Shown one piece after another: positions 116 through 58,035 of a stretch of DNA of 64,000 bases. The stretch is from assembly GCA_964106645.2 (NCBI GenBank), contig OZ067038.1. One strand, given 5' to 3'. The notes under the pieces are model-generated. The model was not told the DNA's origin. It ran no database searches and saw nothing but the letters and a program-made list of their open reading frames with translations. A program made the translations under genes and the position numbers. The stretch comes from Podarcis pityusensis. Its lineage: Eukaryota. How positions within the stretch are numbered: the stretch's first letter is position 1; each line of letters starts with the position of its first letter.

Positions 116-20101
<19,986 letters not shown>

Positions 20102-53300: not shown

Positions 53301-56300
53301 ACCTGCCCCATACATGACATCATATATGGGGCAGGTAGAGACACAGACGCCAATGCACATTGGGAGCCTGACTGTGCATTGGTTAGGGAAAGCAGGCTTC
53401 AGCTCTACTGCCCAGATAGGTGAGAGCCAATGCTTTCCCTAGAGTTCCCTGCAAGGAACTTGTTCATGCAGCTGATGCCTGCAAAAAGGATTCAGCTCTC
53501 CTGCCCATCAGCTGACTGGTGGAAGAATGGAAGCCTGTTTGTTGCAGGAATCAGCTGCCTGCTGCATTGCTGTGGGGGGCTTATAGAGCTCCAATTTCTG
53601 CTTTCCTGCCTGTCAGAACCACATTACAGCGTCTGTGACACAAGATAACCCAAGGAGAAAGGACAGTGACTCTGCTGAGTTTCTTCCTCATTCTGTTGGT
53701 TGACCTGCCTGCCTACCCTGTAGTTGATTTCCTTCAGCATTAGGAAAAAGTTGCAAGATGAGAAGACAGACAGCAGAGGAGCTGCTCAGCTCCTAGGGGT
53801 GACAGAGGAAAAGAGCAGAGCTAGTTGCTATTAAACAGGCCAGTTTCTATATCTGCAGCAAAAACATTTATTGATCACACATTTATCACCCATTCTTCAG
53901 TGGCTAACATACCAGAACCTATATATCCGCTCACAATATCACTAGTTACTTTTGGATTTACAGAGGCATACAGAGTCATCAGAAATACATTCCAGGATCA
54001 TATCTGATTTTGGCTCACTTGACTGCAAGTTGGTCCCAGCCATGGAGCAAAATTGATCATCTCATTGCTCTGTTATATATCTGGATTGATTTTTGAGATG
54101 TGTGAGAATAAATTCCTTCACATCATCATATGCTGAAAATTCATCTGGCTGCTTGAAGAAACCATCAAGTGATCACTGCACTACAGTTTGTGATAACAAA
54201 CACTGAGCTTGTGGTGCAGCCACAAGCTTTTCAACAGAAATGGCCCCATGCTGGTTGCCGGAAAAACGTTAAGTGCTGTTGGTGAGATAAATACTAAAGT
54301 CTGATTCTCACAACTTACATAATTTTCAGCCTGACTCAAGCAGGATTGATGGTAAAACATCTATGTGGTTTACAAACAAGTTAAAAAACAGTTTGCGTGA
54401 ATTGACCCTAACTTGTTCATTATGGTTTGAATGATCGTAGCCAACAAACCACTTCATTAGATGTATGAAGTTTGCTGAGAAAGTTGTAAAGGAGAATGCA
54501 AGTTACCCACAGAGTTTTGCTGTTCTCACCTTTTCCAGCTTGCTATCTTGTTGCAAGCAGAAGCCTCTTTCCAGCAAGCTGGTGGAAGTTCCTGAAAAGT
54601 GAGAGTAAGGGGAGTCCCAGTTAGAGAGGTATTTTAATTCCCACGGGCAGATCTTAAGCCGAGAACTAATGGGCTAGCTGTCCTTTTCACATGAGGGTCA
54701 ATTCAACAATCAAGCTGGCATATTAAGAATGAGTGTGGTGGCCTATGCCCTCAGGGCCAACATACATATAATGTAGGCAATATGCTGTTAGGTCTTCCAA
54801 TGTCTTTTTATCAGTGTGTCCCAAACTTGGGTTTCCAGCTGTTTCCGGACTACAATTCCCATCACCCCTGACCACTACTCTTGCTAGCTAGGGATGATGG
54901 GAGTTGTAGTCCAAAAACAGCTGGAGACCCAAGTTTGGGAAACGCTGCTTTTTATTTACTTGAGAGCAGCTATGCACCCTCACCTGGATCACAGACTTCA
55001 CACTGTTTCCTTTGTTGAAATTACCATCCTAAGTTTAAATGCACAGCTCACATCCTCTAGCAGCTGTACCTTCAGTACTGTGGGCCCAATTTTATGGAAC
55101 TCCCTTCTATTTGAGGTCAGACAATCTTCCTCCCTGTTGAACACTGGGTGCCTACTGAGAAGTTTTTATTCTGGCAGACATTTAAATGAAATTGACTGAT
55201 TTATGGCTTCAACTGATTTTTATCTTTATTGTATTACACTATTGTACTTTATTTAAGAGACTACTGTAATTAAGCAATACATAAATTGTCAAAATAAAAA
55301 TAAATGAATGAGCTGTTGTTTGCCTCCAGGAGGTGGGGAGGAAGTCAGGTAATGTCATGAGCCCCTCGGCCCTATCAGGATTGGGCATCTGGAGGTGGAG
55401 GGTGTGGGTTTTCTCCATGCAACTTTAGATGTCAGAAAAAGTGAAACAAAGCTACATCCTCTTAGCTGTTGTCACTGCTCCTCTTGAGAGGCGCAGATAA
55501 TTATTAGGGAGGGAGGATGACTCTGACTAGCCAGTGGGAGGAGCTGAGCAAGAGCAGCTCCAGGGAGAGGGGCAGGACAGTCTAGTGGCCACAAACGTGG
55601 CACCACTTTTGTAGGTGGGATCAGCTGCATCTGCCCCAGAGAAGCACACGTGTGTGCAGCAGGCTAGTGAGGCAAGAGAGTCTCGTGAGTGAACATACTC
55701 CACCTAGACTTTTTAAAACTTGGTGGGAGGGGTGAGACAACCATTGGGACATCTTCTAGCGTCATTAATAGAACCAAGAATTGTAGAGCTGGAAGGGAAC
55801 TCGAGGGCCATCTGGTCCACCTCTCTGCAATGCAGGAATCTTTTGCCAATGTGGGGCTCGAACCCACAACCCTGAGATTAAGAGTCTCATGCTCTACCAA
55901 CTCAGTTATTCAGTTCTGAATCACTTATCTTGCTCTTGTAACTTGAACTCTTTACGACTGAACCTGTGCTTGCTGCTAGCCTGAGTAAAGATCGCTTCCT
56001 TACTCTGAAGTAAGCACTGTGTGATTTCAATCATGGAAATAAGGGGAAAGAGTTAATCATATTCCCTAAGCACTGCTTCACCATCCCATTATCCTCCCTC
56101 TGCAGTATGTTTTTTTAGATATTAAAAAAATAATCCCAAGATACAGTGATTGCTACTATATGTTCAGCCCTCAGATCTACAGTAAGAATTATTGGTAACT
56201 ACTGTAATTCAACACATGTTCAACTGAGTTGTCAGAAATGGGATGAGCTTAGATTATTATTTGTAATACTACTACTTGTAAAGTCACTTTGGGGAAATAT

Positions 56301-58035
56301 AGCCATGTGGTGAACTGTTTGCCTATAGAGCTTCAGCAGCTACAAACTATCCCCCCATTTTCATTCAGTTGTAGTAAATACTTGCCTCGCTAGATGGCCT
56401 GATACTACAGAAGACCAACTCTCCCTACACAGTTGCGGTCACTCAGCAGTGACCTTTTAAGCAGCTGGAAGTAGTGCGCAGTAGTGGCTAGACTATGTAG
56501 GAGACCAAATGTTAAAACTGCTCAGATAAGAATAGAGGAGTAAGTGGCCTTGAGCAACAATAACTTTCAGTGCTCCTTCACAGAATTGTTGAGTGGATAA
56601 AAATGTGTCTGACTGTAAGTTGTCTTGAGTACTTACTAGTAAAGTGGAATATAAACTGAGCAGACATCATGCCACATTCAGTCAGTTTCAACCCATGCAA
56701 TGAGCAGGGGTATGCCAAGTGAGGTCTGAGTTGTGTGCATGATGGAACAGATACATGACTGCTTCATGAGGAAGGGAGAGACAAACTTCACCTTTGAAGC
56801 ACATTCTCAATGGGACAACTAAGTAACATGAAGTGACTACAGTTCAGACCTCTATAGACAGAAAGAGGAAACTGTGGCACCATAGCTAGATGTGTGTGCA
56901 ATTACCTTCTAACATGAAAAACCTTGTATCTGTATCTGAAGAAGTGTGCATGCACACGAAAGCTTATACCAAGAACTAACTTAGTTGGTCTTTAAGGTGC
57001 TACAGGAAGGAATTTTTTTATTTCGACTATGGCAGACCAACACGGCTACCCATCTGTAAATGAAAAACCTTGCTAGTTTGGACAAAAGGTCCATCTAGCT
57101 CAGCATTCTAACAAGTCTGGTATGAGGGCAATAGGCCACTCCGTCATGGTATTCAGTGGCATTCGGTTGCCGAAACACTGTGGCTAATAACCATTGGTAT
57201 TTATTCCCTATGAACTTTTAAAATCATCTTTTAATGTCACCTAAGCTAGTGGTCACCATATAGTGTGACAATGAATTCTGCATATTAATTATGAGCTGTG
57301 TAAGTACAGTACTTCCTTTTCTACCCCGTTTCGTTAGCTTACTGGGAAGCGCTAGCATTATGAGAGGGGGGGAAATGCCTTCTATCCCCTTTCTCCCATC
57401 CATGCGCAGGTGTCAAGGATACCAGAAACCAATCAAAACTATTTTTGGCCACCCAAAAGTGATTAGATAACACCAAGACCAGAACAGCTGCACTTTGAAG
57501 AGAGAAATTGGGCAAGCAAGCTGCTTTCTTAACTGGTGGATAGAACAAGCTGCGCCTGCCAGAATCCCTTCTCCCGGCAACCGAGAAGGGTCGGGCGTCT
57601 AGATGTGGTTGGCCGGGCAGGGGGTCGCGAGAGGGCGCCCCCACCGGCCTGAGGGATCTGACTGCAGGCCCAAATTTGCCCGCCCATCGCTCACCGCCGG
57701 GCAGGCGCCCGCCTCCTGCTCCTCTTCCTCCGGACCAAGCAGGAGCAGCAGCGCCCCCGGCTGCAAGGGGCTCCCCACACACCACACCCCAAGGCCCCTC
57801 TCGGCGGACAGGGAAGGGCCCAGGGCTAAGCCCCGAGGAAGGCTCCACACTGGGCAGCAGGACCAGCCGCCGCCGCCGCCGCCGCGCGCGTCCGGGGGCC
57901 GACCTGAAAGGGAAGCAGAGACACGAAAGGGACGGTGAGAGCAATCAAGGACGCGGGGCCGCAAGCGCTCTCCGCTCCCTCCCGTCTCCCGAAAGACACC
58001 CGCTCGCCCTCACTCTGGCCGGAGCTCTGCTCCAT
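48698..58035 (-). CDS. ZNF408: ZNF408 (PRDM17): degenerate PR/SET-like domain plus 10 C2H2 zinc fingers, about 763 aa
   Basis: Exons (minus): 58035-58014 (tentative), 57903-57695, 54591-54530, 52386-52085, 50394-48698; total 2292 nt in frame. Diagnostic [12 protein letters not shown]...[21 protein letters not shown] and C-terminal [11 protein letters not shown]; adjacent to F2 as in mammals. Confidence 0.92.
52085..52386 (-). CDS. ZNF408: ZNF408 exon 4 ([16 protein letters not shown]...ELLYW)
   Basis: ttacag acceptor, gtactg donor; PR/SET-like ELLYW motif. Confidence 0.88.
54530..54591 (-). CDS. ZNF408: ZNF408 exon 3 ([20 protein letters not shown])
   Basis: 62 nt, ttttcag acceptor, gtgaga donor; phases fit both neighbours. 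Confidence 0.85.
54812..54947. mobile_element. hAT-type MITE
   Basis: Palindromic; perfect 8-bp TSD CTTTTTAT; core shared with 39248-39383. Confidence 0.87.
55769..55915 (-). mobile_element. tRNA-Lys(CTT)-derived SINE with CR1 tail (Squam2/POMSINE-like)
   Basis: GGTAGAGCATGAGACTCTTAATCTCAGGGTTGTGGGTTCGAGCCCCAC fused to a tail matching the CR1 at 29808-29876. Confidence 0.88.
56927..57059 (+). mobile_element. Penelope-like element terminal fragment with a 13-bp TSD
   Basis: ATGAAAAACCTTG at 56914-56926 and 57060-57072; contains a hammerhead motif and the TTGGTCTTTAAGGTGCTAC...CAGACCAACACGGCTAC tail recalled for reptile PLEs. Confidence 0.8.
56932..56969 (+). ncRNA. Minimal type I hammerhead ribozyme motif
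   Basis: GTAT - CTGAAGA - A - GTGTG CATG CACAC - GAAA - GC - TT - ATAC: stem I, conserved core, stem II and palindromic AGCT stem III. Confidence 0.75.
57695..57903 (-). CDS. ZNF408: ZNF408 exon 2
   Basis: ctttcag acceptor, gtgagc donor; [30 protein letters not shown]. Confidence 0.9.
58014..58035 (-). CDS. ZNF408: ZNF408 putative exon 1 coding part (MEQSSGQ)
   Basis: gttATGG context; CAGA|gtgagg donor in the required phase 1. Confidence 0.6.

Follow-up and report, generated by a model that had tools for sequence, protein, structure and literature searches.

The stretch of DNA analysed here, called the window throughout, comprises 64,000 nucleotides (64 kb) and carries on its minus strand a PR/C2H2 gene whose predicted exons lie at 58035-58014, 57903-57695 (exon 2), 54591-54530 (exon 3) and from 52386 onward. 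Their splice sites are canonical and their frame is open, with the PR and C2H2 domains downstream, and a plus-strand insert of 133 nt therefore lies antisense within intron 2. From human gene order (a Gla-domain gene and SNORD67 nearby) the host gene is presumably ZNF408; SNORD67 itself is placed by Rfam at 9998-10107 (+), with 102.6 bits. The features in and around the insert are these:

54592-57694, minus strand: intron 2 of the PR/C2H2 host gene, as set by the predicted splice sites and reading frame
56914-56926, plus strand: left copy of the target-site duplication (TSD), present once in the empty allele, where 56913 joins 57060 with 13 shared letters
56927-56930, plus strand: 5' junction letters, from repeat comparison; the family has different letters here
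56931-57059, plus strand: element proper, 128-129 nt (ribozyme, spacer and tail), with a depth step at both ends
56932-56969, plus strand: minimal type I hammerhead, from descriptor match, numbering and family conservation
56970-57029, plus strand: spacer from the ribozyme to the putative first RT start, with subfamily-diagnostic letters (variable sites at 56971-57025, allele shares)
57017-57022, minus strand: AAUAAA motif from the insert, on the pre-mRNA strand, a putative signal by its sequence
57030-57059, plus strand: optional AC-rich tail of ~30 nt (up to ~36 nt in other copies), from copies ending near 57030 and six further shared letters in run X13
57060-57072, plus strand: right TSD copy, a 13/13 match to the left copy
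57073-57330, minus strand: older repeat that took the insertion, found in all four organisms, with extra depth at 57061-57120 and 57201-57280

The two TSD copies (56914-56926 and 57060-57072) are identical at 13 of 13 positions, enclose exactly the 133 nt, and are the only perfect repeats of at least 13 bp at a spacing of 100-200 in the 64-kb window, which bears out the perfect direct repeat that a sequence-only reading of this DNA had described as bounding a 133-bp insert. The last two TSD bases together with 56927-56930 (56925-30) repeat 56931-36, so that the element's first 6 nt are duplicated at the junction, likely through re-priming at the template's 5' end. The same reading had the unit begin almost exactly at the ribozyme; this holds for the 5' boundary shared by the family, while the first 4-5 nt of this particular insert are junction duplication.

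The antisense orientation of the insert brings an AAUAAA into the ZNF408 pre-mRNA strand. The earlier suggestion that this orientation would spare the pre-mRNA finds no support, as it stands, from this single locus. Elsewhere in intron 2 there is a tRNA-like head at 55851-55908 (-; Rfam, 36 bits), probably a SINE. The flanking sequence is found in all four organisms compared below and shows extra depth, and is therefore an older repeat; by resemblance it may be CR1-like. A search for similarity to the CR1 ORF2 C-terminus in 57185-57328 (-) returned 0 matches (Atlas, phmmer); the older repeat named in the sequence-only reading is upheld by depth, its CR1 label by no tool match.

Evidence on the age of the insertion comes from the assembled contigs of 4 of 24 runs, one each from organisms A-D (X1 = A, X4 = B, X8 = C, X13 = D), a second run from organism A (X2) being left out. 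Looking for the empty site in relatives, as had been proposed, finds it in all four organisms. X1, X4 and X13 each have one contig that joins 56913 to 57060 at flank depth, with a single TSD copy, skipping 146 nt cleanly across the 13 shared letters. X8 lacks the insert too, but carries a local 18-nt duplication. This is a tandem duplication at 56899-56916 that overlaps the empty target site in organism C (one contig, depth 4). A filled allele is not listed among the contigs of any of the four runs, contigs being prone to drop rare alleles. X1 differs from the window at 1 of 454 flank bases. The insertion is thus young, as the earlier reading had it, and since even this very similar sample has the empty site, it is probably polymorphic as well. 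The window's own letter A57004 accounts for 48% of family depth in organism A and for 0.6-2.2% in B-D, a share that fits a recent expansion of the family in A.

A minimal hammerhead of the Penelope-like form

The ribozyme can be numbered throughout. Stem I (4 bp) pairs 56932-35 with 56966-69; C3-A9 occupies 56936-42 and is followed by an extra A at 56943; stem II (5 bp) pairs 56944-48 with 56953-57 around the loop CAUG and opens with G10.1-C11.1; G12-A14 lies at 56958-60, ahead of a loopless palindromic AGCU at 56961-64; and N17 is U56965, with the predicted cut after 56965. A type I descriptor finds this match alone on both strands of the 64-kb window and nothing in 300 of 300 Markov-simulated windows. 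The features expected of a minimal type I hammerhead are all here (C3-A9, G12-A14, a 15.1-16.1 pair, an N17 other than G, ends in stem I), as are the marks of the Penelope-like element (PLE) type, namely an extra nucleotide between 9 and 10.1, G10.1-C11.1 and a palindromic 15.2-16.2. Numbering and descriptor together confirm every part of the earlier description of a type I hammerhead with full core, extra A and AGCU stem III.

The Rfam hammerhead models, among them the Hammerhead_1 model suggested as a check, gave 0 matches at E<=10 for the window, for 601 nt and for 66 nt. They equally miss the hammerhead motifs of three other contigs (L005-L007), so the models do not see this form of hammerhead. 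Those contigs came from a search with a looser core pattern, which returned 15 matches outside the window's family, 11 of them in metagenomes and 4 in prokaryote genomes; of the 15, 11 lack the stems and were dropped, and 4 form both stems. L005 (21-69, -) and L006 (269-314, +) each hold a minimal hammerhead that shares this core and has compensated stems; likeness to L007 is 67% for L006, and no PLE frame lies near L005. Relative to L005-L007, 5 of 9 stem pairs covary, in a comparison for which the 4 of 15 matches were chosen for their stems and the pattern fixed 3 pairs.

L007, a metagenome contig, carries within 244-1417 an RT motif frame followed by a CxxC + GIY-YIG frame, the two offset by a frameshift (Pfam E 0.017, below the cut-off; Atlas 0.96-0.97). 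Its ribozyme lies 27-30 nt past the stop of the GIY-YIG frame, and an inverted second copy starts ~10 nt before stem I. Read from these frames, L007 appears to tie the same ribozyme core to a compact PLE in another eukaryote.

Within the window's own family, only N17 (U or C) varies at >=5% of family depth across 56932-56970, while ten sites vary downstream. Both U and C at N17 are cleavable. The core nucleotides are accordingly conserved among copies, although 1 variable site of 38 in the ribozyme against 10 of 90 downstream makes no significant contrast (p = 0.17). Stem II covariation, which the sequence-only reading had asked for among genomic copies, is absent within the family, the stem being invariant at the 5% level. 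Minimal type I hammerheads are described from the pseudo-LTRs of metazoan PLEs, turtle and snakes included, mostly as dispersed single copies (PMC4209133). The present one resembles those described there in its core, the extra nucleotide 9/10.1, G10.1-C11.1, the palindromic 15.2-16.2 and a 4-bp helix I. On the other hand, the single copies of that account are highly variable and probably truncated PLEs, whereas the window's family has a near-invariant ribozyme and singles that share both ends.

Folded alone, the insert forms stem I with a pairing probability of 0.82-0.86 and stem II with 0.99, and once genomic flanks are added, the stem I probability drops to 0-0.16 in five of five longer folds. 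Folding z-scores are unremarkable (-0.46 for the insert, -0.89 for the ribozyme). Stem II with its loop (56944-56957) is a perfect 14-nt palindrome, a possible second dimer interface competing with AGCU. The predicted dimer indeed pairs through this palindrome and not through AGCU (-31.2 kcal/mol, against -7.1 per monomer), in a nested folding scheme that cannot represent the active dimer. Minimal PLE hammerheads are characterized as having low self-cleavage activity in PMC4209133, cleavage by the hammerhead of PAc, a Poseidon PLE of Anolis carolinensis, is described as protein-assisted (PMC11167929), and 1 of 9 Xenopus hammerhead dimers is given as active (10.64898/2026.07.22.740005). Because the copy in the ZNF408 intron is a lone minimal one and is predicted to misfold with its flanks, it is unlikely to cleave itself, whichever way it is oriented.

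Ends and anatomy of the repeat family

A high copy number is borne out by 5,450, 2,081, 4,365 and 5,578 family contigs in the four runs. Family depth stands four to five orders above flank depth, with ratios of 28,000-111,000, or 900-3,600 after division by 31 for contig overlap; these ratios are not copy numbers and, allowing for the overlap, indicate roughly 10^3 to 10^5. The window's letters at 56977 and 56992 make up 54-62% of depth in organisms A and D and 3-8% in B and C. Organism D is the most divergent in its flanks, yet shares these letters with A, a pattern that subfamily loss, introgression or transfer might explain.

Two classes of 3' end occur in the family, one near 57030 and one from 57059 to 6 nt beyond it. 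They lie 30-36 nt apart, which corresponds to the optional 30-40-bp tail of PLEs. Contigs running on behind 57023 follow the family for ~11 letters before agreement is lost, and a 511-nt ENA contig, P0002, diverges there too. In P0002 both strands show a match to the ribozyme region, in head-to-head arrangement, and three of the four runs contain opposite-strand joints. Longer family copies continue at least 30 nt upstream of the ribozyme. With inverted 5' copies, an optional 3' tail, a short TSD and this upstream continuation, the family has the anatomy of PLE terminal repeats, and the element in the window, as placed by these non-coding features, is likely a PLE-type terminal fragment. The sequence-only reading's "Penelope-type" label is in this way supported; its further idea of a self-standing non-autonomous unit runs against the longer copies, which extend at least 30 nt upstream and carry there a TATA-like box that the window copy lacks.

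The pseudo-LTRs (pLTRs) of Adineta vaga, as described in PMC3846280, offer a close parallel, with an optional 31-bp tail, TSDs of 8-10 bp, head-to-head inverted copies and solo pLTRs, and with a TATA motif, 20 bp and an initiator-like motif. They differ in being of low copy, and their TSD-less solo pLTRs are ascribed to recombination, whereas the solo piece in the window is flanked by a TSD and begins downstream of the box.

Two other assignments fit less well. Against a SINE stand the 3' end, which is an AC-rich tail and not an A-rich or simple-repeat SINE tail, and the finding of no Pol III A/B boxes in the element with crude box patterns. Non-LTR retrozymes (PMC7229834; 10.64898/2026.07.22.740005) are likewise described as short, non-coding, hammerhead-bearing, PLE-related and dispersed as monomers, but those accounts concern tandem units with at least two ribozymes and circular RNAs, whereas the window copy is single, TSD-flanked and built on a minimal ribozyme. 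There is 1 ribozyme copy in the 64 kb, and among the joints listed in the four runs none is a high-depth head-to-tail joint, the back-joints listed being at single-copy depth.

A search for the coding partner found no RT-endonuclease frame of the family in viral contigs, metagenomes, prokaryote genomes or the protein search, and the family motifs gave 0 matches in viral contigs and 0 in metagenomes. The protein search with the insert's frame returned one match from one candidate, without a Pfam domain. If 56977 is given the letter most common in organisms B and C, the reading frame that begins at the loop II ATG has no stop across 56950-57024 (P0002), and a second ATG stands at 57029, at the start of the tail; the ORFs of PAc and of Adineta PLEs are shown starting in the region corresponding to 56950-57029 (PMC11167929, PMC3846280).

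The 5' ends of the family carry the most information about its origin. Among the positions listed, loose ends are best supported at 56931 (49, 37, 53 and 48 contigs in the four runs, 187 in all) and 56932 (56, 28, 58 and 58, or 200), with 47 more at 56933 in two runs. This pile-up at 56931-56933 is the shared 5' boundary at the ribozyme that the earlier reading had anticipated. As 56931 is the leftmost base alignable to the window, longer copies necessarily pile up there, and flank agreement at 56931 (0.40-0.49) means that only ~15-35% of its contigs share upstream sequence; about 62 of the 187 would be expected from copies starting at 56932. At 56932 flank agreement is 0.37-0.38, near the random-flank level of 0.33-0.39. 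Longer copies are under-counted, since contigs collapse on entering the upstream sequence, which is of high copy number; contig counts are biased in this sense and give no share for the short unit. The boundary lies 33-34 nt upstream of the cut site. No 5' end falls at the cut site, 56966, among the positions listed (the smallest holding 30, 19, 27 and 35 contigs), nor does any downstream position before 57016 appear among them.

Upstream of this boundary, the X4 consensus opens with TATATAA at a distance of 30-31 nt from 56931/56932, and by hand comparison 29 of 30 letters agree with P0002's antisense frame after back-translation. A spacing of 30-31 nt is the canonical distance from TATA box to start, and such a box at that distance is found for 0.45% of window positions. 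It is clear in one of the four consensus lines (X4) and weak in X1, the consensus being limited to 30 letters, which may hide the box's true start. Two of the four comparison motifs also have a TATA-like hexamer, L006 at -35 and one L007 copy at -31; L005 and the inverted L007 copy have none. An initiator-like A would sit 2-3 nt upstream of the 5'-end peak. By contrast with such a TATA layout, D. virilis Penelope is described as having a TATA-less internal promoter ~120 nt upstream of its ribozyme. The letter before 56932 is G in all four consensus lines (p ~0.001 for random flanks). A copied cap is reported to give an extra G in L1, and the G here could stem from such a cap or from a variant without T56931. 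In favour of the variant, the second-last letters follow the upstream subfamily letters, the pair reading TG in A and D and AG in B and C.

A proposed run-off origin and its rivals

On balance we incline to the view that the insert is a run-off cDNA, made from a 5'-proximal RT start on an uncut PLE transcript and promoterless once inserted. A TATA-type promoter within the pseudo-LTR of a longer source copy would drive transcription, with 56931-56932 as the start to judge by the DNA ends. The RT-endonuclease would then nick AT-rich DNA and, by analogy with the Anolis data, begin cDNA at the tail end, which for the window copy would put the RT start at 57059, 94 nt past the cut site. As this start signal lies ~130 nt from the 5' end of a transcript beginning with the ribozyme, priming there would give a start-to-tail cDNA, some 130 bases being copied up to the RNA's first base. 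The template was presumably not self-cleaved, because the copy keeps the whole ribozyme. What was left at the site is the 13-bp TSD and the 6-nt junction duplication. The resulting copy would be a promoterless passenger, its lone fold predicted to be sequestered by the flanks; having neither the upstream box nor Pol III boxes, it is likely a dead end, and its ribozyme would be conserved for the needs of the source elements and not for those of the ZNF408 intron.

Much of this scheme has a counterpart in PAc. There, RT is reported to start internally at +111-118, 85-92 nt past the cut site, and the product to shorten with the template's 5' end; uncleaved RNA serves as template, cleavage is dispensable and needs protein, and no RNA ends were observed at the cut site (PMC11167929). 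The AC-rich internal RT start past the ribozyme (85-92 nt in PAc, a putative 94 here), the optional tail between two 3' ends and the AT-rich targets are alike, but by eye the two share no sequence likeness beyond the ribozyme core. In the PAc template as printed, a TATA-like run can be made out by eye 31 nt before an initiator-like A, which lies 11 nt 5' of stem I. The passages on PAc in PMC11167929 describe no common 5' ends or short run-off units.

One might suppose instead that the family is a discrete non-autonomous element, SINE-like or a retrozyme monomer, whose ~130-nt master has the ribozyme at its start and depends on a PLE for mobilisation in trans. Common 5' and 3' boundaries, thousands of copies and organism-specific subfamilies speak for such a master, as do the PLE-derived non-autonomous retrozymes described from reptiles, dispersed as monomers with a mean unit of 176 bp (10.64898/2026.07.22.740005). 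A short master would need an internal promoter, and D. virilis Penelope is known to have a downstream Pol II promoter. The element itself shows no A/B boxes by the crude patterns, however, and the family runs on upstream to a TATA-like box that the window copy lacks. The 5' end, moreover, falls 33-34 nt upstream of the cut site, and the back-joints listed are all at single-copy depth, with no high-depth tail-to-head joint among them. Taken together, these points make a short master rather unlikely.

The conventional reading would be an ordinary 5'-truncated PLE end, RT having begun at the 3' tail of a full transcript and fallen off early, with the peak at the ribozyme's edge due to RT stalling, microhomology or a bias of alignment or assembly. 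Heavy 5' truncation is indeed described as typical of PLEs, X4 has copies that start within the ribozyme, at 56951 and 56959, and the contig counts are biased as noted above. Yet 56932 is judged to be at least as well supported as 56931 in each of the four runs, its flanks being near random, and truncation would not lead one to expect the lack of any listed 5' position downstream before 57016, a peak that fits TATA spacing, or a window copy that duplicates exactly the element's first 6 nt. We therefore regard simple truncation as improbable.

It is far less probable still that the boundary marks a 3' splice site, a pLTR intron ending just ahead of stem I and copies that start at the ribozyme being made from spliced or branch-stalled templates. 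In organisms B and C the upstream consensus is rich in pyrimidines, with CAG as its last letters, and an intron of D. virilis is described as ending at helix I, but organisms A and D have CTG with the same peak, and the flanks hold no common upstream exon. That misassembly in the window's source produced the filled allele is hardly credible: no such allele is listed in any of the four runs, but the perfect 13-bp TSD, the 6-nt junction duplication and the organism-A letter A57004 are hallmarks of a real insertion.

The run-off reading invites a generalisation, which we put forward tentatively and with less assurance than the reading itself: the thousands of lone hammerheads in PLE genomes, in place of random truncations, may form a defined class of start-to-tail run-off cDNAs of ~130 nt, copied uncut (cap included), promoterless, and recording the start site. 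They would arise because the RT start signal lies a short way downstream of the point where transcription begins. The same rule, applied to the layout of PAc, predicts a unit of 131-138 nt there. The literature searched holds no match to the family motifs and no account of units bounded by a start site and formed by run-off; Repbase and Dfam, where the family may already be named, lay outside that search.

The link between ribozyme and PLE is already established, and the locus itself is probably ordinary and inert. The interest of the family lies in the handle that it gives on why single minimal hammerheads are present by the thousand in PLE genomes and on where cleavage fits in the cycle, since existing assemblies allow both ends of its copies to be mapped. 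Polymorphic insertions of 130 bp in their thousands would make convenient population markers, and on the run-off reading the family may offer a natural record of how PLEs are transcribed and primed. If its 5' ends lie at the start site and in no case at the cut site, then cleavage would be no step in making such insertions. This would agree with the one in vitro study (PMC11167929) and would place the role of the ribozyme elsewhere, for example in limiting or processing tandem transcripts.
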